Shown: piece after piece, positions 1-52,080 of the stretch
Layout of the letters: the number at the start of each line of letters is the position of its first letter
Position numbering within the stretch: position 1 is the first letter of the stretch
Assembly: GCA_008632985.1 (NCBI GenBank)
Contig: QPGO01000088.1
Location: 186,001 to 250,000 of the forward strand
Direction: 5' to 3'
DNA length: 64,000 nucleotides
Source: Psammoneis japonica
Lineage: Eukaryota
The notes under the pieces: model-generated
What the model was told of the DNA's origin: nothing
Databases searched by the model: none
Seen by the model: only the letters and a program-made list of their open reading frames with translations
Translations under genes and position numbers: made by a program

Positions 1-3000
1 CGAGTGCCAAGGAAGGTGAAGTCGCAGGCCAACATGCGCAGGTGAGCGACAGCCACAGCGCCAGTGCAGGCTCCCATCCACTCGGATTCGGCAGTGGACA
101 TTGCAACAGGGGTTGGGACAGTGGAATTGGCTTCCACCATTGCCCCATTGAAGTAGACCATAAATCCAACGGTTGACTTGGCGGTGTCCGGACAATCCTG
201 CCAGCTGGCATCGGTGAAGACCACAAATTCAGAATGACTGATGTTGTGAGCTTCGCAAATCGCGTGAACAGGGCTCGCGGTGGGATCAGAATGAAATTTG
301 ATGGCGAGGTCTTGATGTTTGCGGAGATGGCCAAAAAGGTGGACGAGAGCATCAAAATCCTTCATGCCAGGGTTGGTGCAAGCCTTTGCAAGTTTGCAGG
401 TGATCCAGAGAATGTCAGCGCGAGTGTTGCAGGTGAGACAAAGGATGGAGCAGACAGCGGATCGAAAATGGAGACCAGGACACTTGTTCGCGATTTGCTT
501 GGATTCGGCGGTGTCCTTGGGTTGATTCGCTTTGGAGCACACACAATCAACGGGGGCTGGGGCATCCTGAAAGCTGGGGCTGCCCCAAGGCGAGGTGGGA
601 GTGAGGAACCGCTTGAGGAGATTGCGCACATGTCGATGTTGGTCGAGAGAGAAGGAGCCGTCGGAATGTCGGTGAATGTGCATCTGCAAGAACCAGGTGA
701 CGTCACCGTTGAATGTGACATTGCACCTGGATCGTGTGAGATTCTCAAAGTCCTTTTCGACTCTATCGTGAGACCCAAAGTAGATGATGTCATCCGTGTA
801 GAAAATGAGCTTGAGATGTGAGCCGTCGGGGAAGTGCTTGGCAAAGAAGGTGGGATCTGCCTTGGAATTGGTGCATCCTTGGGCAAGTGAAAATTCGGAG
901 AGCTCGGTTGACCACCAAAGACCGCTGCGGATGGTCCCGCACATGCCTTTCTTGAGACGGAGGGGTGCACCAAAACATTCAGCAAATTCAGGAAAATGTT
1001 GCTTCAGAATCGGGTCGAATCGAACAAACAGGCGGCCGCGAGCGGGGGCTTGAAGGCAAGCACCGACGAAATCACCATTCTTGACGTGTCGTTTGGCCTT
1101 TGCTGCAAAAGCTGGGAAGAGCTTGATGGCACGAGAGGATGCGTTTGGTGACCAATTGTCGTCATCGGCTGATTTGCGTTGCATGTCGCCGCGCGCACAG
1201 TGTCGAGCCTTGAGTTTCTCCAGAGAGCCGTCGGATTTCTCCTTGGCACGTAGAGCAAGTGTGGTGCCGATGATCTCATCGTCTGGACGGGGACATTCAT
1301 GAAGAGCAAAAGCTTCATTGTCCACGATGAGGTTCTTGAGCTCAGATCGGACGGCACGAAGCCAGGCATCGCGAATCGCAGGAGGTTGTCTGAGGATGGC
1401 TCGAAAAGAGCGGGGAACGGGTGAGCAGTCATCAATGGGAATTGAAGAGGTGGCCTGGACGGCTTCCAAGGCCTGTTGTAAAGGATCCGGGCATTTGTGC
1501 CAATTGCAGTCAGGCCAAGGAGATTCAACGGAGGCGCTGTGCGCAGATTCCATGGCGAGCGAGTCGTCGAAGAGAGTTTGTTCGAGGAGATCGACTGGGG
1601 GAGTGGAGGAGGTCATGGCGTAGAGTTGCTCCTCGTCCGCAAAGCGCACGGAAGTGCGGAGGCCAGCGTTGGTGCGAGTGGATCGTCTGAGACCGGTTGT
1701 AGCGGGTGCAGGGGATGGTGGCGCTGAATCGGATTCATCGGATTCCGGAGGCGCGTCGGTGAGAGTGGAGGAACAAGGGGGTGAGTCAACATCAAGGAAA
1801 TCTTGAACAGTGCCCGCATGTTCATCCACCGGATTCTCGTTGTATGTCTTGAGGCTGGAGGCGTCGTTGGAGATGTTCCGGATCGGGAGTGCGCCAGAGA
1901 AGGGGACGTGGTCGTGCACGAGTGATGATTCGAAAAGTTCGTCGAAGACAGCGTCGTGCGCTACAATCAGATTCTTGGCACCGATGCCCTCAGGAACATG
2001 GATGAGGCAGCCAGCCTGGTTTGGTGCGAAACCCACATGAGTGCCACGAGATCGACGTTGAATCTGTTGTTGGGTGGTGGTCGGGCAACGAGTTGCCGGG
2101 TTGAGAGGTTGGCATCTGTCAAAAGTGACGGGACATCCAAAGACCCAAAAATTGCCAATCTTTGGAAGTCTGTTGAATGCATGGCAGTGCGGTGTAGCCA
2201 GGGAGCCATCAGGGAGCCGCGTGCCTTTGGCTGGGAGAACGTTCAGGATGGTGACGGCATGGACAAATGCATGATGGCAGAAGTGTGCCGAGAGTCGTGC
2301 ATTGACAAGGAGGCAACGAATCATCCGGCTTGCGACTTGCCACATGCGTTCCGCGACCCCGTTCTGCTCCTGGTGACGTGGAGCGGCAACTTCGACCTTG
2401 ATTCCATTGTCTTCACCAAAGGCAAGAAATTTGGAGGACAGAAAACATGTTGCGGAGTCCGCGCGGATGAAGTTTGTGTCTTGGATTTGTCCCTGGGATT
2501 GTACTTCGGTCATCCATGATTTAAAGGCGGCGATGATGTTGCCAGATGATGGGCTCTCAAGGCCACGAACACCGCAGTGGTGTCCTTTGTGGGTTGCCAA
2601 AAAGAGGTGGCAGGGAAAAGACGTTTTTGGGGTGAGTGCGACTGTGTGAGGGTTGGGAATTATGTCCACAAACACACGTGAAAATGTGTGTGTTGGTTCA
2701 GTCGGGTCACACTTAACGCGGTTGCGCTTTCGGGAGATGGCGATGCGCGCGTTGTCGAGATGGTCGTCAGTCCCGGGGGCAATGTGGCAGTCGCGCCAAA
2801 CTTCGCCAACTGTGCCCGCCAAAAGGCTCTGAGAGGAGCGACAACCGAAACGGCGACCTGCAAGGTCAAGGTCGATTGCATGTGTCGTTGGTTTCGATGA
2901 GCCTTGGGCGTCTGTTGCTTCCGTCAACGGGAGGTCGGAAGTGGGTTCCGGTTCTGTGGCAGCTGTGACATCGTGACAGGAGCGCTTGTGACGGAGAATC

Positions 3001-6000
3001 GGGAAGCTGAATGTGTGTCCGTCGCCAAAATCAAGTGTTGTGATGTTGGCAGTGATTCGGACATTGAAGAGTTCATTGGCCGTGAAGGAGGGCACCGAAA
3101 ACAAGTTCCGGTTGAGGCCGGGGATGCAATGGACGCGATCGAGAACAAGGTTGACCGGATGTCCTTGGTCGTCTTGAAAACGGAGGGTGACGGATCCAAC
3201 TTTCGTGGCATGAACGGTGGTGCCGTCTGCAATGACAACAGGGACGTGACAGGAGGTGCTGTTGTCAAGTGAGTCGTGACGAACGAAATGGGAAGAGGCA
3301 CCAGAGTCGACAAACCAACTGCTGATGTCCGTGAGGTCGGAGTCGCGGGGCAGTTGGTGAGGTCGGCACTGGTTGGGATCGTCGGCCATGCAGGCAATTT
3401 GAACGTGACAGTCAGCGGTGTTGCATGAGAAACGGGGGATGGTGTGGACCGCATCGATGGAGTCATAGCTGAGATCAGATGTGACGGAGTCGATGTCATC
3501 GTCAGAGATTGTAGTGTGCCCGGATGCGTAAGATGCCGTGGTGAAAGCGTCGTGGAAGTCGAAGCAGACTGGTGATTCCTCGGGAGAGTTCCCGGGGGGC
3601 GGTTCATCAAAAGGGCAGGCCGTGGCATCATCCGGTTCGCATGGGCGACGGACCAAAGACGGCATGGTGGATGATGATTCCGTGCTGGAGTCGCAATCAT
3701 GATGTTCAAGGGGCGGAGGACCAGCAGAATGTGAGTTGGCGGAGAGAGTGTCGTTGCCATCAATCGAAGAGGTGTCATCGAGGAGATCCTGGAGAGTGAT
3801 GGCAGGCATGGTTCCATGAGTAGAGGAAGATGCGATCGAGTCACTCGTGGAGCAGCAGGCAGATGAGTCGTCATCAAAGGAGACATGGCGTGGCACCAGG
3901 GTTGGGATAGAGTCGGAAGAGGAGGGACAACAAGAGCGAGCATCCTCCATGTCAGCTCAAGCAGCGCAGAAAATGATTTGGTCCTTCGGGGGAGGTGCCT
4001 TTGCGCGGCAGTGCATGGCAGGTGCAGTGGCTGTGAGAGCGGTCTGTTTGGAGTCCTTGGCGAGTTCGGGACAGGCGGGACGAAGGTGCCCCTTTTTTTT
4101 GCAGTGACAGCACGTGACTTCGCTGAGGTCACGAGGAGGTTTGGCAGCAGGTTGATCTTTGGGTGTGCCCTGCTTCAGATCACGGAGCCGAGAGCGACAG
4201 ACGGAGGCGTTGTGGTTGCGTTTTCCACAGCAGTCGCAGATCTCGGTTGCGTTAGGTTGGTTTGGGCGACGGTGCTGCTGTTGCTGTCGTTGTGCATTCC
4301 GAGGAGCGCGTTTGACGGCAGCAAGGTGAGCATGGTTGTTGTGAGAGCGGGAGCGGGAGCCATGCGAGAGCCGATCACGATGCTGTTGGTTGTGATGCTG
4401 CTCGTCGATGTCATAAAACGTTTGCCGGATGTCCTTAAATCGAGGAGCGGTGGCAGAGGAGAGACGAGCAGCAGTGCGAAATTCGGATTCGAATTGCTTG
4501 ATGGTAGCGTCGTAGCGGGGATGGCTGCCCATTTGGCCGAGAAAATGGGCACTGATGTCCGCATCAGTCTTGACGGGAAGGCCGGCGTTCTTGTGGCTCC
4601 GGAGTTTTCGTTCAAACCGTTGGATAAAGCTGCTGGCGGACTCGTCCGAGTTGCGAAAGACTTGGAGGTAGTCGTCTGAGCAGCAGTTGCTGTGTTCCTG
4701 AGTGATGGGCGCACAGCGTAGCTGGAGTTCTTCGAGAGCAAGTTTGCCGGAACGCGATCCAAGGTCAGAAATGTCAGATTGGTACGTTGCGTCCACACAC
4801 GTCCAGAGGAGAGCACAGAGGGCGCTGTCGGCATGGTCTGGAAGTGGGCGGAGAGGGACAGAGGGAAAATCATCGAGCACACCATTGAATTCCGGAAATG
4901 ATGCGAAGGTCCCACGCAAGTCATTCAAGAATGCACAAAATTTTTGTCGTCGTGTGTGCGGATTCTGATGGTGCTTCAGAGTGCGCAAATTTGCACAGGA
5001 TGCATGCTTCATCAGTGAATTCGACAAGGATTCCGAGGTGCGCTCGCTGGCGACATGAGAGAAAACAGTGTCGTCGACTGATGAGTGGTGGGCGGACGGG
5101 CAAGCGGGGTGTGGTCGTGGGGTGAGGGCAAGGCGGAACATGAGTTCCAAGTAAAGGGACTCGGCTTCGCGCATCATGTCCTGAAAATGACGAAGTGCTA
5201 GAGTGCTTGCTTCGCAAGCAGGGTGTCGATGAAGGAGGCGCTCGAAAGACGTTTTTGCCGAATCGACAGTGTCGCGAAGCTCAATGGCACGTTCATTCTC
5301 ACGATGGAAAAACGGTGCGAGAGCTTGTTGGGTGTCGAAGAGAGCCTCGAAGGTGACGAGACGAACCTGGACGTTGATGTCTTGGTCGACGGACAGGTCA
5401 GACGCGTCAGAGGTGTTGGGCAAAGCTGGAGAAGGTGAGTCGACTGCAGGAGTGTGAGCAGGAGAGGCAAGGGCCTCATCAAGTGCTTCATCCATTTCGT
5501 TCAACACAGGAGCAACAACATCAAAAAGCGGTGTCGCGGAGGTTGATGACGGGTCGACATGGGAGAGAGCAGGAGTGGCTTGATCCGTTGGAGATGAAAG
5601 CGGGGGGAATTCCTCAGGGGACCCCAGTGGTGCAGTGACAGTGGGAGTGGGTGGCGGGTCGTCAGCAATGGGTTGAGACCCCCCTTGAGCTGATGCACCA
5701 TGCTCATCGTCGGAGTGTACGGTTTCAACGGTGACGTAGATGAAGTGATCCGAAGAGGGGTGCGGAGGCTGCTGCGGGCCACTGTCTTGACACTTTCTTG
5801 TTTCAGGCCGAAAAAAAAAATCAGCGTCTGGATGATAAAAGGGTTTGGAGCGGGACATGCCGTGGCGGAGACGGTAGGATCGTAGGGCATGGTGTTCCTG
5901 GTTGGGAGTCATCCGGAGTGATTTCCGCGAGCATGATTTGGTTCGACGTTTTCGGGGGCGCGGCCGAGAAAAGTGAGCAGAGGGCGCGGGGTCATCGCGT

Positions 6001-6941
6001 GCGGAAGGTTTCGGAATGCGGTCATGCAAAGTGTCCAAATCGACATGTAAAATGTCAAGGGATGTGTCGACATCTGTCAATTGGTCGCGGATCGCGCGGT
6101 CACAGAGACTGTGCTCGGGGTTGAAAAACTCGGATTCGTCGTGAGTGGCTTGATCCAATGACGTGTCAAGTCGAGCACGAGAGTGCTTGATGATGCGAAA
6201 GTTGGAGCAGAGCTTTTCAGTCTCGAGTTGGAGACGATCAACGCGGGCCTGGGCCTGAGCAAGACGTTCGCTGAGAGCGGCGCGGACGTCAGCTTTGACA
6301 CGAGAGAGACGGAGCTCGTCAGGTGCAGGCAGAGCAGGAGCCGGGGTGCGTTTGACCGAAGCAATGGAGCGACGAAGAGCGCGTTGGGTGCGACGGCGAG
6401 CGGTCTTGGTGCACTTGCGAGTTGGCTGCGAAACAGCATGAAGGGTCCTGGGCAAAGTGACGGGTTTGCCGTTGCGAAGGCCACGAACAGATGAGCGAAC
6501 ACGGCGCTCAAAATCCACAGTGTCGGTAGAGCTGGAGAGCGTGCGGTTGACGGCACGTTGAGAGCGATGGGTGGAGACCTTGTTGCGCCTGGGGGCCTGC
6601 TGCGAGGGCTTGGAAGGCGGCTTGGAGCGCGGCGCAGATGTGCGCTTGATGCAACGGGTGGCAGGGTGGTGCACGCCCTGGGTCACGCGACGAGAACGAC
6701 GACGACGTGCGGCGCACATGCCAGCATGCTGGACAATGGAGCCAGCATCAACATTGTGACAACGGTCACGAGGGTCGGCCATGGGGACGTCATCGACGGA
6801 GCGTCCGTGGACCGTAAAAACTTCATGCGAAGAAAGTGCGTGCGAAGACGGCTTGGGAGAGGAAGCATTGCGAGACGCATGAGCAGCGCTCAGCTTGAAA
6901 GAAGCGGTCGTGTTGGACCAAACCGGAAGTGTTGCAACCAT
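1..6941 (-). pseudogene. gag-pol polyprotein, single in-frame TGA at 3957-3959, many Tyr>Cys/His changes
   Basis: ORF 3957..6995 and the PR/RT/RH motifs share one frame; the ORF track shows no terminated ORF in that frame downstream, so pol appears open to the window edge. DFVGACLQA and KGMCGT replace the usual AYLQA and GxYG. Confidence 0.85.
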
Positions 6942-6973
6942 GATAGGAAATGGGCAAGAACTGGGCACTCGCC

Positions 6974-7135
6974 TGAGAGTGTCTTGGGTGATCAAGTCCG
7001 TGCACTGACAGGAGAGAGCAAGCTAGAGCCTGATCTAGAAACAGCACCTTGCGACAGTGCTTTGTCTAGAAGTTGTGAGAGATTCTGAGCTAGTCTCAGA
7101 ATCGACATGGCTGTCAGAACAGATAGATTCCGACA
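6974..7135 (-). repeat. probable 5' LTR of element A (~162 bp)
   Basis: Starts TGTCGGAA, ends CTCTCA, followed by PBS-like GGCGAGTGCCCAG and then the gag ATG; the partner LTR is outside the window. Confidence 0.55.
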
Positions 7136-7956
7136 GGTTGTTGAAACACTCCGAAAGATCAGTGAATTTCAGTCACAAACCCGACTGAATGTGTGCACTG
7201 TCTTCGAACATGAGGCTCCAATGTAAAAGGGTCATGTGGGATCCCTGTCAACACCGCACAAAGCATTTCTATGTTTCACTTGTATTTTTTTCATGGCACT
7301 CTAGTGATCTCTAGATGAGTGTTTTCTTCTGTGTCTATGAGAATTCTTTCGGAACTTGAATCACCATTGTTCTCCTTGTACGAGTAGACTGCTTCCGACA
7401 TGCCTCCACTGCAGTGCTGCAGTTGCAGTGCCGTCCTTTTCCCTTGAGTTGCTGAGGAAATATTTGTTCCCAATCCTCAGAGGAAGCCACCCTTCAGACT
7501 CCTGTGCTTGATGGCAATTGCACTGGAGTTCTTCACCCGCCAGAGCAACAGCGTAGCAGTAAATCCCTCAGCAGCTGACTGCAGGAAGGGCAACCGAATT
7601 TGAGGCACCTTGGAGCACAGACGAGATGTTGGACTTATGGAGTCCTGGAAAGCCACCATGTTGTAGTGCCTTCAGCATAAGGTCACTATCCATCCATACG
7701 CACCGCAACATAGCCGGAAAGGCGGCGATAAGAAGCCGTACGGCCTCCGTAATCTTCATCGTTGATTTACTGTTTTTGTGATGGAAAAAATGCAGCGAGT
7801 TTATCACGGAGCGGAGCAGCGCGGACAACGTACAGACTTACGGGGGGTCCCCGTTAAGTAGCCGTTGTGACGGTTCCCGCTAAAAAAAAATAGCTGCGAG
7901 CACACAATGACCATCAACCATCAGCATAGCAGTCGACGCTGTTGCCTCTCAACACC

Positions 7957-12860: not shown

Positions 12861-15800
12861 CTCGGTCCCCTCGAAATGTTCCTCTAGAGTAAGCTCACTA
12901 GACACAATTCGACCCTGTGCTAAATCGCGATCTCCAACACTAAATAAACATGATCCTTGAGCATGGTGTAAACCCTCACCAGGGAAGAAAATCACCACCG
13001 CTCCTCCACCACCACTCCTCCACTCAATGCGTGAACTTGTCGTCTGACAGAAAATTTCGTCTGACCGACGACATGATCTTCGTGAACAAATCACTCAGGT
13101 TTGTTTCCGTTCCCTCCTTTGCAGTCCTGACAGTCCCTGCAGTGACAGCTTTGCAGTTACGGTGATGTGCAATGGAGTGATGCTTCTTCTTGAGTGCAGA
13201 CTCAGGAATGGCGGAGCAATTCTTGTGGGCGGCCTCGTTTCACAAAAGACATTTGTTGGTCCCTCAATCGGCACCCCGAACATTCGAAGCTTGTGTTGCA
13301 GTCCTTCAACGAGCTCAATGACACTCTTGAGCACAATGATCTTGGCTCCAAATGCACTTGCCTCCACAGCATTCTGACATTTCGAGCATCGCGTGATGGG
13401 CGCCCGATTGACAAACATCAAGACACCTGTGTGACTGCGGCGATCGGCAACATTGCCAGCATGGTTGGCATCCACAAAACAATGTGTTGACACTGCATTG
13501 CCTCGAGCAGGCAGTGCATTTGTTGGGATGGCTTCCTTGGCAGCTTGGCAAAAGTCATGCCAATCATGCTTCACGAATCGCGATTCATCAATCTTGGGAT
13601 GAGCCGGGTCAAAAGCCACTTGGCGCTTTGGAACCTGTTTGAGACACTCAAAGACATGCAGTGCTTGTTCCAGATGACCAATGCAAGGCAATGCAAGGTG
13701 AGCAGACATTGGCAACACTTCCAAATGAATGTTGACTCTGCCGAGTTCCACAGCCCAAACCAACATGCCAGTCAACTCTTGGCAGCAGTTTGGTCCTTCG
13801 GCATCTAACTCGCCAGTCATGCCCAGCTTGGGCTTGCATCCACTGCTCAGCAGAGCAGTCACCTCACTGGGCAGACATTTTCCTTCTTTGCTAAGTTTGT
13901 CCTCAACATTCTGAATGGTGGCCTTGCAGCACTTCTCTGCAGACATCGACGGACAGATGGTTCCATCGACCAGAGTCATCTTGGAAAGTGCAGCTCCGAG
14001 GCAAGAATCAGGCTCGGCCACTTTGTCACCCTTGAGCTTGAGCTTGGACCTGATGCCATCTATCATCTTTGTTGGCACATGACTGATTGATGACACATCG
14101 TCAACATAAACTGAAGTGCACTTGCAGTGCTTGAATCTGTGGGTTTCACCGCAGGTCGCATCCACACACGTCCGGATCGGCCTTGCTTGGCTTGTGCCCC
14201 AGATCATGCAGCGTCTCCACCAGAAATGCCCTGAATGCCACTCCTGAGCTCTTCAACCCACAGAGCGCTCTGACAACAATCATGACACATCCTTCATCTT
14301 CACCAAATTCTGAACCTGCACAGGTCCAAATCTTCTCCCTGCAAGGGGTGGTGAGGCAGGCATTCTGGATGTTGCATGCAAAAACTTGTGAGTCATTGAG
14401 CACTGCAAGTGCAAGTGCAATTCTTGCTGAGTCCTGCGAGATGACAGAGGAGCAGTTGAGAGTTGCAGGGGCTTCAGTGGTGTGGCCTCCAGCCACCATG
14501 CGAGCTTTGCAATGAAAATTTTCTCCCATCTTGATGTCGAAAATCACATGGCATTTTGCTTCCTGGCAACCAGGCGCCATGTCTTCTAGCTCCCCCTCAT
14601 GTTTCTCAAATGCAGTGCGTGCATTCTTCATCTCCATGCAAATGGCATCCCACCAAAAAGTGTTGCCATTTGCATGATCCAGCTGGATTGCCTCCTTGAT
14701 GCTCTTGGAAATTTGGACAACTCATGTGTCCCCAGCCAACATTTTGACTTGACCTTCGCAATGGAACACTTGTGGGTCCTCATGATGTGAGGAACCCACC
14801 AAGCAAACGCTGCCTCCTCTGAGATCTTGCGCTGGATGGAAAACTTGGTGACTTGGACAGGGAAACTCTCCTTGGCGTCCTTCAAGTCTGTCCATGTCAA
14901 ACTCCCGTCCTTCCATTGCAACAGGAGTTCCCATCCCTTGGTGGTCTTGCACCTCTTCCGAACACCCTGCTCAGTCTCAAAGAATGCGGATTCCGGAATG
15001 TCCCTGTTTGCATGGCAATCAACCATCTCATCAATTGGAACATGCCGGTTCCCGTCTTTGTCAATCTGTGCAATCATGTCAATGGCAATGGAGTTAGCAG
15101 AGAGTGCAGCACTGTGCCCATCAGGGTGCTCTACCTCACACATCCCAGTGTCAAGGATGGGATTGTCATTGGCTGTTCCAACTGGAATGCCATTGGTGTC
15201 TCTTAACCTCTTCATAACGTGAGCAAAGTTGGGGCCATTGTCATCCCTCGGGAGTGCCACTTCCATGTTTGGACAACCCCAATCAGCTGCTTCCGGCAAG
15301 GCTTCCTCATCTTTCTTGTCGTCGTCTTCATCAATTGTTTCTTCTGATGACATGATGCAATCGCACTCATCAAGGAATTCGTCATTGCATCCAAGGCAGT
15401 CCTTCCAATCTTTGGGGCTGATCTTTCGTTCCTCGTCATCGGGGAAATCTTGCTCCCTCAGACGGTGCATGATCTCCTCGTCAAAATGGTCAAACTCAAC
15501 CTTGTTCTCTTGAGTGGTGGCTTCTAAGCTGGTGACTCATTGAACGGATGTCCTCAACATGACACTGCCGGTCTCTGTTAAAACTTAATGTGACATGAGA
15601 CTCCCCATTCTGTGAGATGCACCAAGCCACCTGCCAAGTTTCTCATCACCAAGACCTGCATTCTCCCTGCACCAGACCCAATCATAAAATCCAAAGTCCA
15701 GGTGCTCTGAGACATCCACGGTCTCTCCAAGAATGTTTTCAAGTGGTGCTCCAGCATCCAAATGATGTGATCTAATGCAAGACATGATTTCACAGGTCCG

Positions 15801-17030
15801 TGCAAATCTGCAATCCCACAATTGCCTTGGCACACGCTTCTTGACCATGATGCAGAACCACTTGCATCAAACTTTGCACACAACTCCTTCAGCAGGGTTC
15901 TGGTTGTGTCGATCGGGTTCGATGACATGGTGGTCAATGCCTTCCTTGTGCACCATCTTCATGAACTCAGTGCCCGGTTTTGTCTGCACCTTGGAACCAT
16001 CCATGACAAGCTTCTTGGCAGAACGTCTTGAGAGCTTCTCCTGCTTTGCTCTTCTTGTCCACATGGCAGATCACAGCAAAGTGTTGCTTGTTTGTAAAGA
16101 TCCGGGCATGTTGATTGCCTTCTCACAAAATCACCTTACCGTCAACAGCATTGGTTGCCCACTCACCTTGCAGTCTTGGTGTTGTCATCATGTGCTGGTC
16201 CGCTCGACAGCGTTGACCCATGGGCATTGGCACCAACCTTGTGAGCTTCCAAGCAATTTTCTTGAGTGTGCTTGTTGCTTGCTTGAGTCCAATGCACCAT
16301 TGTTCGCTCAAGTCCACAGCTGTCATGTCACTGTGCTGCTCCTTGGACATGAATGTCTTGCGGGTTGGCGAATCTTCAGGTCCGTCACCAATCATTTCGG
16401 TTGCAGCGACCTCAACTTCTGGTGGTGCATGACTTTACTTTAACTGCTGCTGTCAACCTTGATTGAATTTGATCAACACCACAGATGAATTGCCTGTCTT
16501 TGCAGTCCCCAGACTGAGGGTCACTGCAAGCGGTGTCAGCACTAAATTTGTGTGTCAAATTTGTCTGGGCAGTCTGGATCGTTGCAATTGGCTGAACCAA
16601 TTCCGTTTCCTCCTCCACAGAGCATTGAGGTCCAACAGAATTGAACTTGACATTCTGTGGTTCCCAAGGGTTGATGGGAGGTCATCTGGATCCCAGGGCA
16701 CTCATGCAACTCCTGATCCATGGGAGTGCAAGTTGCCACAACGACATTGGTCCCCACAACCTCAAGTGGCATCATGAGCAAATTGTCCTCCATGAGAACA
16801 TGCAATGGCGAGTTGGGACAGGGGTTGTCCTGGACCTTCACACTAAAATGCCGCAATTGGTTGGGGTCAACCAATGAGTGCTCCATGGAGTCTGCTGTCA
16901 GGACACTCTTGATGGAATCGCATCCCTCATCAAAAGGCAACACATCACATTCTCTTCCAGATTGACCCAAGAGGGTGAAATTACAACCAAAGACAGTGGT
17001 GTCAGCGTGCAAATCCATTTCAATGTCTGC
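12644..17030 (-). mobile_element. degenerate CoDi-like Copia retrotransposon (element B), 5'-truncated
   Basis: Fragments: protease EMDLHADT (~17010), integrase EPDRHNQNPAEG (~15900), RT CHVIFDIKM..KARMVAGGH and YVDD (~14100-14550), RNase H CFVDANHAG..RRSHTG (~13450), ending TNLSDLFTK. Confidence 0.93.
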
Positions 17031-17045
17031 TCTTGATGATCTTTC

Positions 17046-17065
17046 CACACACACACACACACACA
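17046..17065. repeat. (CA)10 microsatellite at the junction of two TE relics
   Basis: Direct reading. Confidence 0.9.
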
Positions 17066-18316
17066 TGGTTTGTTGGTCTTACAAAGAGATGTCATTGTCA
17101 TCCAGCTCCTCCAAGTTGTGCTTCGTGTCGAGTTTCGGGAAAATCGGTTCAAGAATTTCTGCGGGATTCACCGCGCACCCGAATGGAAATTTTGCCGCCA
17201 GTTTTGGTCGCAGATGAGTGTGGTGATTTTGTGTGTTTTCTACACAAGCTCTGGTGTCTATTTGTGCAGCTCTACATCAATCCTCTACACAGCATGCCTT
17301 TCTTTGTGTGACACCTTAAACATGCTGTCTGCCTCAGCCTCCAGCCCCGCCTGGCTTCACTTCTTTAACTCCAATGCTTTCAGGCAACGGCTCACCTCTT
17401 TCAGCTCAGTCTTCAGTTTGTTGACCTCTTGGTGAGCCACAAAGGTGCAAAAGCTTGAGCTGACTTGGCCTCAGTCCCCGCGTTCTTGGCGTTCTCCGTG
17501 AGGGTTGCCACCACAGCTTGGAGAGCAGTGAGTGCTTCAAACCCACAGTTGGTTGCCAGGAATTTGACGCATTCAGATGCCACAGAGGGATGGTTCTTGA
17601 ACCCATGAAGCACATGATGTTCCACCATCACATCCTGAACCCAAAAGACTGCCCAAAAAATTCTGGCTGCACACCGCATCCGGGTCTGTCCCAGCCACAG
17701 ATGTGAACACCCCAGACCAAATCTTGTCAATGTTGTCAAAGATCTGGTGGCCCAAGCCAGCAATCAAAGACCAAGCTTGCTTTTCAGAGAACTTGCTCAG
17801 CTTCACAAGGTTGTTGCAGGTCTTGTCCATGAACTGGATCCAGGCCCAGACAAAGGCTGCCAACTTCGACAGAGCATCGCGGACCACTTGGCTTTCAAAT
17901 GATCCAGCCAGAATCCTTTGATCAGTGTGTCATTGGGACATCAGTCTCGGCTGTGCCCATCTTGTCTAAGATAAAATGCTTGGTCCCGGTGGTGCCCGTC
18001 AACCAATGGTCATGAGTCGGGATTTTGTCAAAGAAAGAAAAGTGAAGCCCAGGGGACTGAGCCGCCTTTGCAGTGCCTGAGTCTTGGACCCGAGGCATGC
18101 CATGCTGGAAGCCAGACAGGGTCCGCACATCCCCTCATTGCTGATCCTCAAATTCATTTGCTTGGCCAGTCCCGCAAGAAAATCATGGAGTGCTGCTGGC
18201 TTGACACCCATGATGTGATCTAAGAGCAAGTTTGCATCAGTTGGGCACCCATGAGCCCTGGATGAGAAGTGGCTGACCATCCACGCCTGGCATTCCTGGA
18301 AGGACAAGACCCCCCC

Positions 18317-18562
18317 TGACAGGATTTGAACAAGATTTCAGTTTGTCCCACACAATTGTGCACGCTCTTGGTTCCATGTGCGTTGTGTGATGCAGTTTGC
18401 TTTTGAGCCACTCGGCTCACAAGAATGACAGCAGTTGTGCCAATGTCAATGACACCAGTCTTTCGGCTCCTGCAGCGGTCTCTGCACCGAGACTCATCTG
18501 CCATCCAGACAGCAGCAAGGAGTTGTTGTTTTCTTCCACCCAGTCATCTTCAATTTCTGTCA
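18317..18562 (+). repeat. 5' LTR of element D
   Basis: TGACAGGATTTG...TTTCTGTCA, colinear with 25566-25811. Confidence 0.95.
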
Positions 18563-21500
18563 GATTGACAGCCTTGCTTGTCTTCATCCATTTTGAGCAT
18601 TCATCATCATCACAAGAAAATTTTGATGACGCGCACCATTCGCGGTGGAAGCAGAGTGTGTGCCTGCCTTTTACACTGCTGGATGTTGGATTGAATTGGT
18701 GCGTTTGGATCTGTCCAATGCTTCTCATTGCTGAACACATTTGTTCAACGGACATTTGTTTGGTCAGGAATTCCCAAACTCTCAGACATCCGAGATTCCG
18801 GAATCCCTGTTCTGCCCTGGTTGGCAGACAGACCAATCCATCCGCACGTGTTCACGTGCCCACGACACAATCATCTGACTCTGGCCTTGCTGCATGCACG
18901 CCAAGTCTGCTGCCTCGTATCTACACTGGATTGCTGGTCTTCTACAGTCCCACAAGGTCTGCCATGAGGATGACTGTGAGAGGAAGCAGTTCATGATTGC
19001 AGCCTGCGTTGGGGTGAGGGTGCATTTCCCATGTTTTTTGGTCCCTCCACAGTGCCAAATTTGGCCGGCCTGATCAGGTCATCCAACCGATGTAAACAAA
19101 AACAGTTCAGAGGTCTTGTTCACCTCCAGCTGGCTTGTCAGCAGGGGTTTTTAACCCGTCACTCCGCTCTCAGGCAACTCAAAGCATCACCAGCTGTGGG
19201 TTCGGACGTGCCGGGGCACAACTCTGCGGACCAGACAGGAAGCTCAGCATTTGGCTGTGAATGGGACATCACAGCATGACAGCTTCTGATTTGTGAGATG
19301 GCTCAAGACATCAAGTCAAGTTTCAAGTCAAGTTTCAAGTTGTTTCAAGCTTGCCTCCAACTCTGGCACCAGTTCCGACACCCACTCAGTTGCAACATGG
19401 TTCTCACCAGGCAGCAACAAATCAATGGTCTCAAGCACATCTTAGGCACTGTTCTGAATCAAACCACAGACAGTCCGTTGCGCTCTGCCCTCAGCATTGA
19501 CAGCACTGACTCATGCCAGGATCTCTTTGCTTTCACTCCAATGCAACTGGATGCCCTGGTTTGCAATGATGGCACCAATCAAACGCCCTTGCCACGTGGT
19601 CACAAAGCACAAAGGGCTGCACTGATTAGTCTGCACATGGTGAAAGTGCGTGGCAGCGCCAATGTTGGCAACAATCCCAACTTGTTCACACAGGAGGAGT
19701 TTGCTGACTGTCATCTCAGTCCCAAGTGCACAGCGTCCCTCTCCATGGGTGCAGCGCCATCTGCTCCCACTCCTGGCTCATTGCCCCCAAAACCACGTGA
19801 CCCCATGCGTGACTTTAAACGAGGCATCAAACATGACCCACTCACCTTTGCGACTCTCAAGTCTGACAAACAGTGGCACACATGGCACACCTCTGTCATC
19901 ACACAGGCCCACTCCCAGGACGTCAACTGCATCCTTGATCCAACGTGCAAGTCCTCCACAGCTGAGGACAAGGCCCTGTTCGATGAACAACTGAAGTGCA
20001 TGTTCACTGCATTCGAACACATCTTGCAGAACGACAAAAACAAGGCACTTGTTCATGAACATGTTGCCTCCTCTGATGCTCAAGCAGTGTGTTGTGACCT
20101 GTCCAAGCATGCCCTTGAATCTGCTCGCACATCCCTGGAGTCCTTGACCCTTCTCACGCACATCACCACTGCTCGCCTTGGTGATGGCACCTGGAAAGGC
20201 TCCACCCATGCCTTCACACTTCACTGGCAGGGGACCAGCTCAAGCATGAAGCTCTCATTCCAAGTGTGGACCACTTCTCTGCTGGCCAGAAATGCACCAT
20301 GCTTGAGAACACCATTCATCCTGTTGAAGAACTTTGTTTGGCAAAGAATCAAGCTGATCAGACTGGCATGCAGAATGGCACGGACCTTTCATGCAAGCAG
20401 CACTGTGGGCTCACACTTTCTGCAGCAGCACAGTGCGACTGTGCATTCAACCCCAAGATGGCCTCCCATGCCCACGCCATGCCATCTGCACCCATGACCT
20501 GGCACCCGACAACCCTGATGATGACACATTCTTTGACATTGACAGTGATGTTGACATCATTCAGGCTTGTGCTGCTCAAGCCCGCGGTTCTTCTCTCACC
20601 AGGGAACAGTGGCACCGCATTTTGCCAGACCACCAGTGCATTTGGGACAGCCTGCCACAGTCCACCAAGGCCATCATCCTTGGATTGTGCCCCCCCTGTT
20701 CCGGCAACTGCCATGAGTCAGAAGCTGTCAGCCTCCATGCTCCATGACCTCCGTCTTTGAAGCAATGGCAATGTTGATTTGTGCGCCAACACTCATGATC
20801 TTGCCTTGACTGCCACACCACCTGATGATGCACGTGACAGGATGGACAACAACCTCATCTGGCACATCTCATGAAGTGCAAGCTTCTGCCGCCTGGCGAT
20901 CTGCAGTGTCTTCTCTTGCCTGACAAGCCGCTCCTCTGCTTTCAATGGTGGGAACCATTCAAGATTCTTTCTGATGACACTCAGAAGATTCTCTGCTGCT
21001 TGAACATGATGTGTTCCACCCGTGATCTGTCCACTCCAAACCTGCATCTTGATCCCCTTGACAAGGAATCTGTTTAACCCACCATCAAATCCCAACACAA
21101 CTCCGAGGATCCACTGGCTTCACCAGATGGAGAGGTGATCAGGATGCCCAAAATGCTGGTCTTTCTTGACCCCGAGGACATCATTGGATGCACCTTCCTC
21201 ATGAAGCAACAAGAGGATGGACAACACCACAGAGCCCATGTCATCAAAGCCGTTGAAGACCATGGCTGGAAAATTGGAGACAACCCTGAACTGGTCAAGT
21301 TCATCAGCTCCGTTGACAATGATGAACATGAGGAAGTCCTTGCCTGCAACAGCATCATGCACCACATTGAGCAAGAAGACAAGGATTCCACCCTCTGGAA
21401 ATTCCAATGCATCCTCTCATGCAAAGGACCATTGAGACCTCACGATCCCTCTTGGAAAGGCTCAAGCTGCAATGTCATGCTTGAATGGGAGAATGGGGGG

Positions 21501-21691
21501 ATCACGTCTGAACCCCTTGCCATCATTGCCAAGGACAATCCCACCACCTGTGCCATTTGTGCACACGAACACGATTTGCTTGAGACCAACAACTGGAAAC
21601 ACTTGCAGACTGTCACTCTGCACCAGAAGAAGCTGTTCTGCATGGCCAATCAAGCCAAGTTGCACTCCTTTTGTGCTGCACCATGATGCAA

Positions 21692-24600
21692 CATCAGAGA
21701 CCCGCAGCAAAGGCCATGATTCACAAATCATCGAACCCCAACATCTCATGGTGTGCACACGCGCGCAAACATTGGTCGACCCCACTCCAGATTGAAATCG
21801 ACATCACTTGTCGGGAGTGCAACATTTTTGTTTGTTTTCACCATCCTGATCGGCACATTTTGCACTTGTTGCTCCTGGCAGACGTGTTTCATTCAATGTG
21901 CATTTGTTGACTTGTGTTCCAACATAAAAAGCAACATGGCAGAATTGCTCCTTTGTCTCTGAATGATTGCACTTCATTCCAACTGAAACATGTTCATTTT
22001 CACATTGTGTGTGCATTTGCGCCGAAAGTACGGCATTTCCGTCTTCATGACGGATGTCAATCATTCAGCGAAATTTTCACCTTTTTCTGTTGTTCCTCTT
22101 GCAGCATTCATCCGGCCAATCGTGTGCAGGACATTTGTCCCTTCCACTTGTGATCTACGGATCCAATCCCCTGTGCATTTTGCAATCACTGCAGAACAGC
22201 GAAAGCAGTGCGACGAGGATTCCGTGGATTCTCTGCGCAAGACTGCATGGGTTCTCCACAAATCAACATTTTAAAACCTGCTGCGTGCATCATCAAGAGC
22301 TGCCAAACAACTCGAACCCACCATGACAATGAAGTGCGACGGTGTTGATGCTCATTCTGCCTTTTATGAAGCATGCATGGTCACCAAGAAACAACAACCA
22401 ACAGCAAAAAAAAGAACAGGCTCCTTCCTTTTGATGCAAGCAGCAAGTTCGTGATTGATTGTTGACGTGGCTGATCAATGAATTTGCAGCAAAACATGCC
22501 TTCAGCATGGGACACGCCGCTTCTGATGACATGAGTTCATTGTCATGGTTGTCTCACATGACTTGGTGATTTTCACTCCACGAGACTCGGAAATTGACCT
22601 GAATGTGCCGCATCATGGTCATCGTGGTCGAAGACTCGAGAGGTTGGTGAAAGCACATTTTCCTCGCACATGAGCCACGCAGAAATCACGCAGAAAAATG
22701 GCTCTTGTTTTTGGACAGAGGATCTGTTTAAATTCGAGTGCAGATTTACAGCCAAACAAAAAAACATTCGGGAAGCACTCTTTTCAGGTGAGCAAAAAAA
22801 CACAAAGAGGGGAAAAATGCAACCGTCGCTCCGCAAGACTCAAAAGACAATGCAAAAAAGGGAGGGCCGGCTTGCAACGGCGTGCAAAGCAGTGCGACCA
22901 TGGCACGGTGAGTGCAGGCAAACACACAACACAAAAAACAACAAAGAATTGTTGCATCTGTGCCTCAGAGACAGACCAATCTAAGCAAGTGGATGGCTGA
23001 TGATCAAAAGGCCGGCAGAGACATCATCAAGGTGAGAGATCGCATCAAAGAAGAGGCTTTTTTGAGCATCGCACTCACACTTTGTGCAACAAAACAGGCA
23101 CGCTGCACAAAAACAAGTTTTGCTGCAAGTTTTGCGGGGGGATTGATGTTGCAGATGGCCGATGATCAAAAGTCTGGTGGAGACATCTTCAAGGCAAGAG
23201 ATCTCGTGTCAAAGAAGAAGCTTTTTTGAGAGCGCCGCACTTGCGCTTGGCGCAAAATGACCAGACAAAACAGGCAAGCCGCACAAAGACAAGCTTCACC
23301 ACAAGCCTCATTGGAGAATTAATGTTGCACAAGATTCAAAACTCACACCAGCAGCATGGCCATTTCCAACGACACAGGGGCGGGACAAGACGAGAGAGCG
23401 ACTCTCAGCTCTGATGGGTGTTGTGAACGAGCTTGAGAGCATCGCCAACAAGAGGCTCATGCAAAAGGAGGACATTGCAAAGAAGAGAAAGTGTGCAAGA
23501 TGACTCAAGCACTTTGTGCCAAGCAACTCGGGGCCGGCAAAGGAGGACGCAGGAGGAGACGATGCACGGCACCAAGGAAGAGCAGCAAGGGAGGGGATGG
23601 TTGCCGAGAGCCAACAAGTTCTTCAAGGAGCCGGTCATGGAGATCAAACGCAACATCATGAGTGATCAACTTGGTCAATGGGAAGATCCGTGTAGAATGA
23701 TTTCAGGCAGCCACAGAAAGCAAGCGGGGGAGGACTTCACGGCTTGGGTGACAAGGGGGAGACCCCACATGGCGAGCTGTGCCAAGGTCGGCAAGCTGGA
23801 GCTGATGGTGGCTTGGCAGATAAAAACCCATGATTGTAATTTCGTTGTTGTCCAACTCGAGCATTCTTACATTGTAGAAGCTGCACTTTAGACGGCCACT
23901 TGAACATTTCGTGTGGATGTAAACTTCTTGAATTTCACCGTGCTGATTGGATGCACCTCCCTGGATTCGAACCCACGGACATTTGTTGGAGGTGCGCGAC
24001 ATTTTGTTCGAACCAACGGACATTTGTTGGTTGGTGTGGACATTTGTTTGTTGTCAATCACGACCATTTGTGGTAAATGGTCGTGATTCGTGTTAACACG
24101 GGATCCACGGGTGCACCCGGGAATTGCGGGATGAAAGGGGAAAGGGGCAAATGGGAATGTTGGGAAAGTGAGGGGCCATTGTTGTGCCTTGAGGGTCCCT
24201 TTGGTGAGCTGAACACGCACATTTCTCATCTGACCATCACAGGTCCGTCTTGTGGGGGGTGTCAAAATATTGTGACGGGGCGCGTCTTGAGGATCAATCG
24301 TCACATGGTGTGCATGGCTGTGAAGGTCACACAAAGTTGAAAAACGCACGTTCGCGTTTTTCATTTGTGTCGTTTTCAGATTCATGTGATGTCAATGGTC
24401 AAACATGTGACACACAAAATCATTTCTTGAGACCGCGTCTGCTCTCACAATTTGAGGACCCCCGAAAGGACGGACCTGTGAGGGTCAAATTGGCAATGAG
24501 CGTGCTTGGCTGACCAAAGGGTCCCTCAAGGTAAAATGACAGCATGTCACTTTTCCACCATTCACATTTGCCCCTTTCCCCTTTCATCCCACATTTCACA

Positions 24601-24745
24601 GATTCCCCTGGTGCATCCGCGGATCCCGTGTTAAATGGCCATGATTCATCACAAATGAACACATGCACGGGCTCTCACATGTTTTGTCACCAACAATGTC
24701 CATTGGCATGACCACAAGACAATTCACGGAAACGGGCCTCTGATG
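21692..24745. mobile_element. non-autonomous TIR DNA transposon (E) inserted in pol of D; 2-bp AA TSD (CMC/EnSpm-like)
   Basis: TIR CATCAGAGACCCG / CGGGCCTCTGATG (12/13); AA on both sides; removal restores host P-x-C-K-C-G-C-E-V-P (canonical PxYKYGYEVP); GGACATTTGTT repeats at 23977-24056. Confidence 0.8.
24097..24630. mobile_element. piggyBac-like MITE (534 bp)
   Basis: TTAA at 24093-24096 and 24631-24634; termini CACGGGATCC / GGATCCCGTG; imperfect inverted repeats about 200 bp long. Confidence 0.85.
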
Positions 24746-25129
24746 AAGTGTGGGTGTGAAGTGCCCCGGGACTGCAAGCATGCCTTGGCCCTTGATGAGC
24801 GCAACAGCAACCACAAGTGGGGAGATGCAACAGACCTCAAGGTGACTCAGCCAGGTGAGTGCAAGGTTCTCTTAAACTGCGGACACTGCAAGGACTCCAG
24901 TGCCCAAAAGCAGGGCACAAGAAGACTGGGGTGCATCTCATCCATGATGTCAGACATGACGGATGGCACAAGGTGCGACTTGTTGCTGATGGACACCTCA
25001 CAGAGGCACCCATTGACTGTCCGCACATCACTTTGCATTGCCTTGGCATCCCCATTCATGAAAAATGTTGCATGTTCAGGGACAACAAGTTGGTTGTGGA
25101 CAGCGCCACTGTCCTGGACTCCAAGCCAC

Positions 25130-25505
25130 ACAAGCAACACACCACCCTCTTGTTCCCACTGTGTGTGTGTGTGAGGCAATTGCCTCCAGTTTCCTCAAGT
25201 TTCATTTCATCAAAGGTTCCCGCAACCCAGCTGACATCCTCAGCAAGCACTGGGGCCACTCCCAGATCTGGGCCCTCCTTCATCCTCCAATGTTTTGGAA
25301 CTTTGATCCTGAGGCACTCCAAGTTACACAAGCGACACACCACCCTCTTGTTCCACTGTGTGTGTGAGGTGATTGCCTCCAGTTTCCTCAAGTTTCATTT
25401 CATCAAAGGTTCCCGCAACTGAGCTGACATCCTCAGCAAGCACTGGGGCCACTCCCAGAGCTGGACCCTCCTTCATCATCTCATGTTTTTGAACTTCGAT
25501 CCCAA
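25130..25505 (+). repeat. tandem duplication (~190 bp) of RNase H C-terminus within D
   Basis: HK(Q/R)HTTLLF..IASSFLKFHFIKGSRN..ADILSKHWGHSQ occurs twice. Confidence 0.9.
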
Positions 25506-25565
25506 GGCTTTCAACCAATCTGACCTTGAATTTGTTGCTGTTGACCCCTCAAGCAAACTGGGGAG

Positions 25566-25811
25566 TGACAGGATTTGAACAAGATTTTAGTTTGTCACAC
25601 ATGATTGTGTGCGCTCTTGGCTCTGCGTGCGTCACGCGCTGCAGTTTGCTTTCAAGCCACTTGACTCACAAGAACAATGACAGCAGTGCCGACATCAACA
25701 ACACCAGTCTTTCGGCTCCTGTGACGGCCTCTGCATGGAGACTCATCTGCCATTTAGACAGCAGCAAGGAGTTGTTGTTTTCTTCCACCCAGTCATCTTC
25801 AATTTCTGTCA
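25566..25811 (+). repeat. 3' LTR of element D
   Basis: Same length and termini as 18317-18562, preceded by PPT. Confidence 0.95.
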
Positions 25812-28800: not shown

Positions 28801-29894
28801 AAGGTGCTCCAACCTTGTGCACCTCCTTCTGTTTTGCACTGTTTTGGTGCACTGACCATGAGGCAGCTCCAAGCAATGCAAAGGCAAGAACAGCAACAAC
28901 AACGGCAGTGATTGCCGCTGCATCCAGTCCATCACCCAAACCGGCGCTGTTGAGCGATGAGCGTTGAAGGCACTCCAATGGTGGGTGATTTTTGTGTGTT
29001 TTCTCCACTGCGGTTCCAAGTAAAGTGCGCATGGCATTTAGTGTAGGGAGAATGGAAAAGCGCACTTTCACCGGCACGAAAGAGCCAAATTCCAAAATAA
29101 GTGGTCCCCGACGAAAGCAAGACGGAACCTCCCTGAGCGAGGCGGGCGGGCACCGCATGACATCAGCAGAGGTTCGCACACTCTACACAAAATGTGATAG
29201 TGAAACACCGTTGGTCTGCCCGGCAGTTTTCTTCTCTCTTTTGGACTGCGTCGTTGCACAAAAATCAAAAATCTGTTACATCACGATGATGCACAATAAT
29301 CGCCACAACGGAATCATCAGTGATTGGTGCGGGACCGAATGATGGCCATGGGTGAAGGAGAAGTGTAAAGAAACCCATCTGTGGAGCGTCGACACCGTCT
29401 GTTTCAGGCTGGTACTCCGTTCCATAGAGAAGATTCGAGCACTTCTCTTTCGCTTCATCATTCGAGATGGGACTAACGATGTCGGCGGAGCGACAAAAAG
29501 AGGGAACTGCTTCAGTTTCAATTTGTTAACCCGCACGACGCGATTGAATCCTTCTTTGTCCTTAATGCACCTTGAGCTCGATTCCAATGCTGATGGTTGT
29601 CTCTTGTCAATGGACTACGATGACTGTCGTAGCGCTTGCGACGTCGTTGCATACTTTGATGTCGTCGTTTTTGTTTTTGTACCACGCTGCTCCATTTCTT
29701 TTGGGTGTCTTCTCTTCAGCATTCCTTCCTCGCCTGGGTTCACGCTGGGGTATTCGTTACGGTATGCCCCAAGGCGCTTGTCGTCGATACGTGCTGGAAT
29801 ATTTCGGCGCTGATCGCCTGCGTATTTTTCCTATGGATTCGTCGTGTTGGAGTAAGAGCAGAATGCCGTTGACAAAGCCACTGGGGGGTTATTT

Positions 29895-38410: not shown

Positions 38411-38499
38411 GTGCGGCATTTGTTGCAAACGATCGCTTGGCAGAACGAAACTTCGAAGTAGAGATTCCCTGTTCTTGTTGTTGTTGGAATCACTGTCCA

Positions 38500-45830: not shown

Positions 45831-46256
45831 TCATTAGACATCTTTCTCAAATGTGCGGACATCTGCGATTTTTGCCAACCATCGCTCGAACACAACCGGT
45901 CTCAAGAAAAAAGCCATGTTTGAGTTTGTCGTATTTATTCCGATCTGTATACATTTCAATGAATCCAGTGACGACGTTGAATTTAAAAAGTAGCTCATAA
46001 CCTAGTTCAATTCGAACCACCACATTTTGTGGACTCTGATTGGCTGTTGCTCGTCGAGCCTTCTCATCCAAGCTTCTGTTACGTAGATTCACGTAGATAA
46101 TGTACCAGCGTTGGTTCCGCGTGTTATTTGCGCTCAACGTGCCGATCCGCAAAATCTGGCTGGTGTCAAAAGATCGTCTCACACATCCTGCTGAATTCCT
46201 TCCCATTGTTCTGCCAATCCACTTTTAGCTTCTTGTCGTTTGTGTTTTGCTCAACC

Positions 46257-50108: not shown

Positions 50109-50166
50109 GAACCTATCGCTGCTTTTTTAAAGAGCCTCATGGACCGTTAGACTCTAGACGTAGTAC

Positions 50167-50331
50167 GTATGGTGATGACTGATAGAACATTATTTGTCTT
50201 ATACTGTAAAGTCTATGTAGCACTATGGAAGGGCTAAAGAGCGTGTGGTTGTATGGTAATGACTGATAGAACATTTGTCTTACACTGTAAAGTCTATGTA
50301 GCACTATGAAAGGGCTAATGAGCATGTTGTT
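50167..50331. repeat. two tandem ~83-bp copies between convergent 3' ends
   Basis: GTATGGT.ATGACTGATAGAACATT...CTGTAAAGTCTATGTAGCACTATG repeated at 50167 and 50251. Confidence 0.9.
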
Positions 50332-51551: not shown

Positions 51552-52080
51552 CTTCAAGCCCGTTTCGCAGTGATTTGTGATTTTTGTGGTCGTGTCGCGC
51601 CGCGAGGATGATTCAAGTCGCAGTACAGAAACAGCGTAGAAATCTACGGAGAGAGGCAGTGTAATTTCCACGCGGAACACGACGGGGTGTGCTCCACTTG
51701 GCATTGAACTCAATAGCGGCGGAGGAGCTATGAGCCGGATCGCGACGGATGACGACGGCCAAAGCGAGTATTCTACTGTAGGGCCTCTAGCTTCCTAACA
51801 TTTTCCCTTTCATGGCTTTACTGGATTTTACGCCTTTCTATTTACAGTGACATACTTTCTAAGGAGATTATTCTATCAAAAGCACAAACACGTCTCGCTC
51901 TCTACAGTTTGAGGCATTTTCTTGTCCGTCTAACTAGAAGTTGGTAACTTAGAGAGTATTTCTTGAGATTTGAAGCTTCATTATAGTGTCCTTGTAGACT
52001 TTTTTCATTATACGTATACCGATCCTTTTTCAGAAAAGGATCTTTGTAGCAACATCGGACAGCGATACAAGAAACATTTA

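Follow-up and report, generated by a model that had tools for sequence, protein, structure and literature searches.

Loss of TpA ahead of CpG in a Copia element and older repeat domains of the diatom Psammoneis japonica

The stretch of DNA analysed here, referred to below as the window, comprises 64,000 nucleotides from the diatom Psammoneis japonica (GenBank assembly GCA_008632985.1, contig QPGO01000088.1, positions 186,001 to 250,000 of the forward strand), and at its left end lies a Ty1/Copia retrotransposon which has lost nearly all of the TpA dinucleotides of its coding region and has kept its CpG. The best explanation, to which we give a probability of about 0.7, is a TpA-directed process converting T:A to C:G that runs ahead of CpG decay. 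Within the window the signature of this conversion is found on both strands as a derived state confined to bounded domains; it arose in place in a pair of long terminal repeats (LTRs) and in a tandem array, and it leads the loss of CpG. An earlier note on this DNA, made from the letters alone, had described the element as young and had ascribed its composition to an adenine process, independent of and faster than CpG decay, which inactivates elements by missense change whilst leaving their reading frames open.

Composition and coding of the Copia element

Positions 1-7135 contain 46 TpA (observed to expected ratio, O/E, 0.13) and 525 CpG (O/E 1.01), in agreement with the roughly 45 TpA in 7.1 kb and the abundant CpG of the earlier note. 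In 1000 mononucleotide shuffles of this sequence 349.6 +/- 14.9 TpA were obtained, which places the observed count at z = -20.4, and a sequence with the host-gene O/E of 0.58 should contain 203 (Poisson P = 3e-40 for 46 observed); about 88-92% of the Copia TpA is gone. The TA deficit of 299 is balanced by a TG+CA excess of 275, and three older blocks of the window balance likewise. For the gag-pol frame alone the O/E is 0.12 for TpA, 1.02 for CpG, 1.29 for TG and 1.38 for CA, and the TpA that survive fall about equally in the three codon phases (15/10/16). The signature of methyl-CpG decay is absent from this composition, in which in-frame CGA codons number 27 and TGA one (CGA>TGA in at most 1/28), and arginine is encoded by 165 CGN codons as against 10 AGR.

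The element lies on the reverse strand (Table 1), where, as the earlier note had it, one frame runs throughout 2331 codons with a single stop and no frameshift; the other five frames contain 23-98 stops, nearly all of them TGA. The order within this frame is an N-terminal extension, gag with two CCHC knuckles, a protease (VDSGASSHF), an integrase region, reverse transcriptase (RT; FYTDD) and a partial RNase H. Two relatives, P0001 and P0003, align over 99% of the query region and bear out the gag-to-RNase H order in a single polyprotein. Pfam recognises a Copia-type RT (RVT_2, E = 1.5e-14; 54.6 bits against a cut-off of 31.6, weak for the family) and also Pol_BBD; rve, the integrase core, falls below Pfam detection in the Copia frame and is found in P0003, and the relatives carry PF07727. 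The closest proteins in a large protein collection, P0001 and P0002 among them, share 39-43% identity across the whole of pol and about 50% over RT-RNase H, and several of the closest relatives are named by their sources as the pennate diatom Fragilaria crotonensis. The genes nearby, such as Tic22, phosphoribulokinase and a sterol reductase, are in keeping with an alga that has plastids. The N-terminal extension (690 codons, 4926-6995, reverse strand) is unmatched in the closest relatives and contains a coiled-coil-like stretch; its stops by frame (0/11/29) mark it as truly coding. The candidate 5' LTR retains 5 TpA, 4 of which stand in CTAG (two of these as TCTAGA), and CTAG is not enriched among the surviving TpA elsewhere in the window. 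No primer binding site or tRNA match was recognisable beside this candidate LTR (ARAGORN finding zero tRNA genes), and the 3' LTR of the element lies outside the window. Between 7001 and 7830 the O/E is 0.48 for TA and 0.63 for CG.

The effect on the encoded proteins was examined in an RT-RNase H alignment with 29 relatives, in which 227 columns have a consensus of at least 70% and the window matches this consensus at 162. Only 1 of 12 conserved tyrosines (Tyr) is kept, the rest being replaced by 5 Cys, 3 His, 2 Phe and 1 Trp, as against 161 of the 215 conserved residues other than Tyr (Fisher p = 5e-6); Asp is kept at 15/15, Gly at 18/19 and Leu at 18/22 positions. A comparison with five full-length relatives gives the same picture: Tyr survives at 2 of 20 conserved positions and is elsewhere replaced by 7 His, 6 Cys, 3 Phe, 1 Arg and 1 Trp (p = 1e-6). 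When each of the 29 relatives is left out in turn and scored in the same way, it retains between 6/9 and 11/11 of its Tyr. At the conserved columns other than Tyr the agreement of the Copia copy is 74.9%, against a median of 89.4% for the relatives. The Tyr content of the element is 0.6% and that of each of 100 relatives at least 1.6%, and Tyr residues which are invariant in 27/27 to 29/29 relatives are replaced here. As the relatives retain their Tyr, the loss of TpA is derived; the Cys and His residues which, if shared by relatives, would have spoken against the earlier note belong to this element, none of the 100 relatives being Tyr-poor. Inferred single-step changes on the coding strand comprise 9 TpA>TpG and 4 TpA>CpA, and no context rule deciding between the TG and CA outcomes was seen at the Tyr-derived codons. 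Among the motifs that the earlier note had read as former Tyr sites, GACLQA and KGMCG stand against GAYLQA and KGMYG in P0001 and P0002, but for CDCCG, which is also present, a Tyr ancestor is plausible. Its claim of missense change in an open frame holds, conserved Tyr being recoded to Cys or His with the frame intact. A change of T:A to C:G on TpA is thus seen in the replacement of Tyr by His or Cys and in the match of the TA deficit to the TG+CA excess, as it is in the array copies and the LTR pair described below.

The open frame itself says little about age. When all single-base changes of the frame are enumerated, none of the 3086 possible A:T>G:C transitions creates a stop, and an open frame is therefore automatic under such changes and a sign neither of youth nor of quick TpA loss. 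From the presence of at most one stop, 95% bounds can be placed on transversions (<=2.2% per site), on non-CpG G:C>A:T changes (<=3.9%) and on CpG transitions (<=17.6% of CpG sites). These bounds are loose, and would be weaker still if new TAA or TAG stops are re-edited. The description of the element as young, which the earlier note had drawn from the open frame, does not follow from it, and the youth of this copy is only loosely supported.

Order of TpA and CpG loss within the window

The edge of a TpA-erased domain crosses a Pro/Ser-rich tandem array, so that copies in one register can be compared on either side of it. Outside the domain 18 copies hold 53 TpA and 59 CpG (2.94 and 3.28 per copy), whereas the 11 copies inside hold 1 TpA and 36 CpG (0.09 and 3.27 per copy), the lost TpA being read as both TG and CA; over the whole stretch the CG O/E of the array is somewhat lower inside the domain (0.58) than outside (0.85). 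Judged from these copies, the array edge is a case of in-place conversion of DNA other than a retroelement.

A second comparison, in which age is held equal, is given by the two LTRs of an older element (the 18317/25566 pair), judged genuine because they end in TG..CA and are accompanied by a purine tract and by target duplications that nearly match. They differ at 39 of 246 positions, 35 of these being transitions, and the paired dinucleotides comprise CG/CG 4, CG/TG 4, CG/CA 1, TA/TA 0, TA/CA 2 and TG-versus-CA 10. Under a simple two-process model the loss per LTR is 0.95 for TpA and 0.39 for CpG, so that in hits per site TpA exceeds CpG 6.1-fold (bootstrap 95% interval 1.1-22.7). The two LTRs disagree at about half of the doubly converted sites, and these outcomes form 5 runs among 10 sites, hence showing no clustering; the strand struck at each TpA therefore looks random.

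The same order is found when the window is divided into 64 segments of 1 kb, 36 of which have a TA O/E of at most 0.19. The CG O/E of these 36 spans 1.19 down to 0.05, and the two losses do not scale together with one another, as they should have done if the earlier note were mistaken. All 19 segments with a CG O/E below 0.4 have a TA O/E below 0.2, eight combine a TA O/E below 0.2 with a CG O/E of at least 0.75, and none of the 64 is CpG-poor yet TpA-normal. The older blocks, at 13-29, 35-46 and 58-61 kb, are indeed short of both dinucleotides (TA O/E 0.00-0.26, CG O/E 0.05-0.76), as had been observed before. Erasure is confined to foreign or repeat DNA, with the 36 erased segments lying in transposon or relic blocks and the annotated genes having a TA O/E of 0.42-0.80. 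A tandem duplicate of phosphoribulokinase genes serves as a control: 84 of its 181 differences are transversions, 13 TpA are common to both copies and the changes are symmetric.

Taken at the level of sequence, the Copia element, the array edge, the LTR pair and the graded CpG series support the view that TpA loss is separable from CpG loss and precedes it, as the earlier note had claimed. Its further statement that the two processes are independent stands for their kinetics but not for their targeting, as every CpG-poor stretch of the window is also TpA-poor.

Mechanism and alternative explanations

In the mechanism that we propose, a mutation at the level of DNA would turn T:A into C:G specifically at 5'-TpA-3' in the Copia coding region, with either strand struck at random to leave TpG or CpA. 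Its reach would be limited to sharply bounded domains of silent or repeated DNA, with neighbouring genes spared, and it would approach saturation, with about 90% of TpA gone, before decay of the methyl-CpG type leaves a visible dent. In these domains the slow decay of CpG to TpG or CpA would then follow, and the frame would stay open while TAY codons become CAY (His) or TGY (Cys), ruining the proteins. The chemistry may be deamination of adenine to inosine or, alternatively, a thymine lesion pairing with G. TpA being its own reverse complement, a T>C change there appears as A>G on the opposite strand; the sequence therefore fits an altered A and an altered T alike, and the adenine process of the earlier note was an assumption. 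Targeting of the erasure to silent chromatin and a role in defence would both accord with its distribution, and the window copy may have been converted after its insertion.

Host genes also under-represent TpA (O/E 0.58), and it could be supposed that the element is functional and its composition native, or selected against TpA through codon usage or UpA avoidance. We give this practically no credence, considering the replacement of invariant Tyr, the lack of any Tyr-poor relative among the 100, the equal loss of TpA across codon phases, the low RVT_2 score with an undetectable rve and the reduced agreement at residues other than Tyr. The coincidence of the erased zone with the transcribed coding part brings to mind editing of RNA or of first-strand cDNA during retrotransposition, whether ADAR-like with its 5' U preference or APOBEC-like on adenine, subsequently fixed by reverse transcription, and according to the available text of a recent preprint ADARs favour U before the edited A (10.64898/2026.01.13.699255). 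However, editing of a single strand would give one direction only, and the two directions are similar here (Tyr>Cys 5-6 and Tyr>His 3-7; 9 TpG and 4 CpA products). DNA that is not transposon-derived is erased too (the array edge and a DNA ligase remnant), and one element, once inserted, acquired differences between its LTRs at TA-derived sites, all of which makes such editing very improbable. A further proposal is that the CpGs of the family are unmethylated, in which case their intact state would have no bearing on relative rates. The CpG O/E of the element (1.02) is as high as that of the host genes (0.89-0.97), and the open frame limits its age only loosely, but most numerous among the listed private differences of this copy are CpG>TpG/CpA changes (9/19, see below), and TpA also goes first in the LTR pair and at the array edge, where the sequences compared are of equal age; we therefore consider this explanation unlikely, though not negligible.

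Whether the window copy was converted where it now lies, or inherited its state, was considered through its sister copies, which were judged from the contigs of one public sequencing run compared with the window, two further runs contributing almost nothing. The comparison at single places covers 40 of 1687 variable places; 19 listed places fall in 1-7135, and at these no contig has the window's letter. By likeness the contig pieces divide into 255 (>=99%), 305 (95-99%), 245 (90-95%) and 169 (<90%), and where they depart from the window transitions predominate (G>A 404, A>G 290, C>T 274 and T>C 208 over 1680 places). The 19 listed places comprise 9 private CpG>TpG/CpA changes, 3 private TpA losses, 2 CpG kept only here and 5 others. 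The private CpG losses indicate that CpG decay is running in this copy, and per site the listed private losses amount to 9/534 for CpG as against 3/49 for TpA (ratio 3.8, p = 0.07). Other family copies carry a 96-base tandem duplication at 3629-3724, in two sequence variants.

Several observations weigh against the simplest form of the proposed explanation. The family is one of high copy number, with a summed contig depth of 311-1206 over the element, whereas the single-copy flank has 33-35; the contigs of the run contain just 60% of the window's 31-mers, some places being without the window letter, as would fit near-identical sister copies that have the converted state in common; and private CpG losses make up nearly half of the listed places. 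At 976, 6534 and 7032 all other contigs keep TA where the window copy does not, which is hard to square with independent conversion of about 90% in every copy. The TpA-poor zone gives way close to the start of the frame, at about 7000-7024, and beyond it TpA is retained in the candidate LTR and in the repeated DNA as far as about 7857, although a domain-wide process acting in place would be expected to strike the LTR also. To these must be added the wide interval of the LTR-pair ratio, which reaches nearly down to 1, and the consideration that the retention of CpG may reflect a lack of methylation in this family and not a short span of time.

As the 3' LTR is outside the window and the family is of high copy number, the TpA-poor state may come from an already converted subfamily. 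TpA would then have been erased once, in an ancestor copy, and the dead element subsequently multiplied, by mobilisation in trans through intact relatives or by segmental duplication, a scenario that we regard as a serious contender whose chances fall somewhat short of even. On such a history the window copy would be silent on the speed of TpA loss after insertion, the TpA of the LTR would have been kept by selection for mobilisation, and erasure would predate the last rounds of copying. The high summed depth extends across 1-7830, and every contig (up to 16, at a depth of 987) differs from the window at some places, which together with the word share of 0.60 suggests isolated private differences on a common background. 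The listed private differences include more CpG than TpA losses (9/19 and 3/19), the discordance of about half at the TG/CA sites of the LTR pair means that independently converted copies should differ by about 5%, and the TpA of the candidate LTR is retained. However, the sharing of TG/CA states between copies is not directly visible in the 40 of 1687 places listed, and action in place is demonstrated elsewhere in the window by the LTR pair and the array. A tblastn search with 15 and then with 100 query proteins found no other Copia copies beyond 7200 within the window, and when shorter database entries were screened for near-identical proteins the top match had 68% identity over 17% of the query. 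The claim about order survives even inheritance, as the lineage would still have lost TpA before CpG.

Known systems and other features of the window

Repeat-induced point mutation (RIP), known from Neurospora and other fungi, converts CpA to TpA, thereby raising TpA and creating many stops, by dense transitions confined to repeated or foreign DNA. As in RIP, context-specific transitions ruin transposons in repeat or foreign DNA here whilst neighbouring genes are spared; in contrast to RIP, TpA is destroyed and stops cannot arise, and the Copia frame has low TpA with raised TG and CA where C>T at CpA would leave the reverse. The resemblance to methyl-CpG decay lies in a self-complementary dinucleotide that is replaced, within the same silent domains, by TpG or CpA, but the dinucleotide is TpA and not CpG, and methyl-CpG decay, which runs C:G>T:A, is slower here and has left its signature in the older blocks and not in the Copia element. 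Fungal A-to-I editing and ADAR act at the level of RNA, on a single strand and with a 5' U preference. A>G at UpA is common to these and to the erasure described here, in which, however, both DNA strands are changed, relics that are not transcribed are affected, and the coding strand carries TpG and CpA products together rather than A>G on the transcript strand only.

In a full-text literature search the signature was found described in one preprint only (Mettrop et al., bioRxiv 2026; 10.64898/2026.01.13.699255), and no report from a diatom was found. The available text of that preprint describes mutation-accumulation lines of Bigelowiella natans in which A>G or T>C made up 210/211 and 20/20 of the mutations newly arisen in two integrated viral regions, every such change falling on TpA and the mutations appearing in some of the lines only, about 1000-fold faster than background; deamination of adenine by an ADAT-like enzyme is proposed, and TpA-poor coding sequences of B. 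natans are reported as enriched for reverse transcriptase and DDE domains (10.64898/2026.01.13.699255). The likeness to the present case is close as far as that text goes: T/A>C/G change at TpA only, giving TpG or CpA according to strand, locally and aimed at foreign DNA (integrated giant-virus and virophage DNA), with a long-term result of clusters of low TpA and high TpG+CpA. Unlike here, where they are inferred, the mutations were seen directly, in a chlorarachniophyte (Rhizaria) rather than a diatom, and the effect was mild, the nucleocytoplasmic large DNA virus (NCLDV) region keeping 3.3% TpA, rather than near-complete. In the same text CpG has 0 occurrences and tyrosine, stop codons and diatoms are unmentioned, and to that extent the ordering relative to CpG decay and the open-frame consequence are not in the preprint.

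The Copia element is thus a further case of the TpA erasure known from that preprint, to which it adds evidence, within one window, that the process works on DNA where it lies, strikes either strand and precedes CpG loss. If this is true, a TpA-directed mutator is also present in a stramenopile alga, where it acts on retrotransposons faster than methyl-CpG decay, and silent DNA in such genomes could be dated by a clock in which TpA goes first and CpG follows. For annotators, long open frames in such genomes would be no proof of youth or function, as the process cannot create stops. It may further be speculated, though we think it improbable, that erasure is a fast, burst-like form of defence editing of newly silenced DNA, common to distant algae, and that this Copia subfamily outlived it. 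With nearly all TpA gone the element would no longer be a substrate, and by such target exhaustion its open frame and the TpA of its LTR would allow further multiplication to a high copy number.

Table 1. Coordinates of features in the window, with strand where one applies
Feature	Positions	Strand	Remarks
Ty1/Copia gag-pol reading frame	3..6995	-	2331 codons; cut by the left end of the window; from translation, Pfam, relatives and composition
Sole in-frame stop, TGA	3957-3959	-	Between gag and pol
Candidate short 5' LTR, 130 bp	7006..7135	-	TG...CA on element strand; LTR status putative; summed contig depth peaks in bin 6801-7200
Repeated DNA adjoining Copia, not TpA-erased	7136..7857		Single-copy DNA begins at ~7831-7857
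Older erased block	13001..29000		TA O/E 0.00-0.14, CG O/E 0.25-0.76 per 1-kb segment
Decayed Copia RT remnant (weak match)	14149-14721	-	RVT_2 34.7 bits; frames broken; TA O/E 0.05-0.14, CG O/E 0.35-0.40
5' LTR of older LTR element	18317..18562	+	TG...CA ends; CCCCC precedes
3' LTR of same older element	25566..25811	+	Purine tract GGGGAG before, ACCCC after
Pro/Ser-rich tandem array	29900-36300	+	42-nt and ~177-nt periods; 29 copies in one register; split into several open frames
Array end inside TpA-erased domain	35001..36300	+	Domain edge crosses array at ~35 kb
Oldest-looking erased block	36301..46000		TA O/E 0.05, CG O/E 0.23 overall; CG O/E 0.05-0.17 at 39-45 kb
Decayed NAD-dependent DNA ligase remnant	36802-38141	+	OB-fold E = 3.7e-13; BRCT E = 6e-5, ~0.8 kb downstream
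Host genes, unconverted control	46501..58000		PNTB, Tic22, EDR2_C, FAD_binding_4, ERG4/ERG24; TA O/E 0.58, CG O/E 0.89

A Pfam search of 81 long frames from the older blocks returned only the weak RVT_2 match and the ligase OB fold, and with so few domains the ages of the blocks cannot be ranked by broken domains. The RVT_2 match, weak as it is, may mark a second and much more decayed Copia element. NAD-dependent DNA ligases are typical of bacteria and of some giant viruses, and the block around the ligase remnant may therefore hold foreign, non-transposon DNA.

The trinucleotide context TAT/ATA is the most depleted in four blocks (1-7000, 14001-28000, 36301-46000 and 58001-60000), where TA/(TA+TG) in this context is 0.012-0.041 as against 0.378 in genes. 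Among the surviving TpA of the Copia frame 18/41 stand in CTAC, and in the older blocks TAA/TTA contexts account for most of the survivors; these patterns suggest that the erasure has a flank preference.

Between the Copia element and the first older block, single-copy DNA at 7930-11246 (forward strand) contains open frames and tandem repeats of about 420 bases (9043-10328), with a CpG O/E of 1.0 and no Pfam match in the region; its TA O/E of 0.38-0.45 is slightly below that of the genes further right. The tandem phosphoribulokinase genes (61109-62395 and 62778-63998, forward strand) have about 80% DNA identity and are both open, the second running off the window. A strand bias that seemed common to the CpG and TpA changes of these duplicates vanished on checking direction, both genes being intact and their differences symmetric. 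Both are unerased for TpA, though the first adjoins an erased block.

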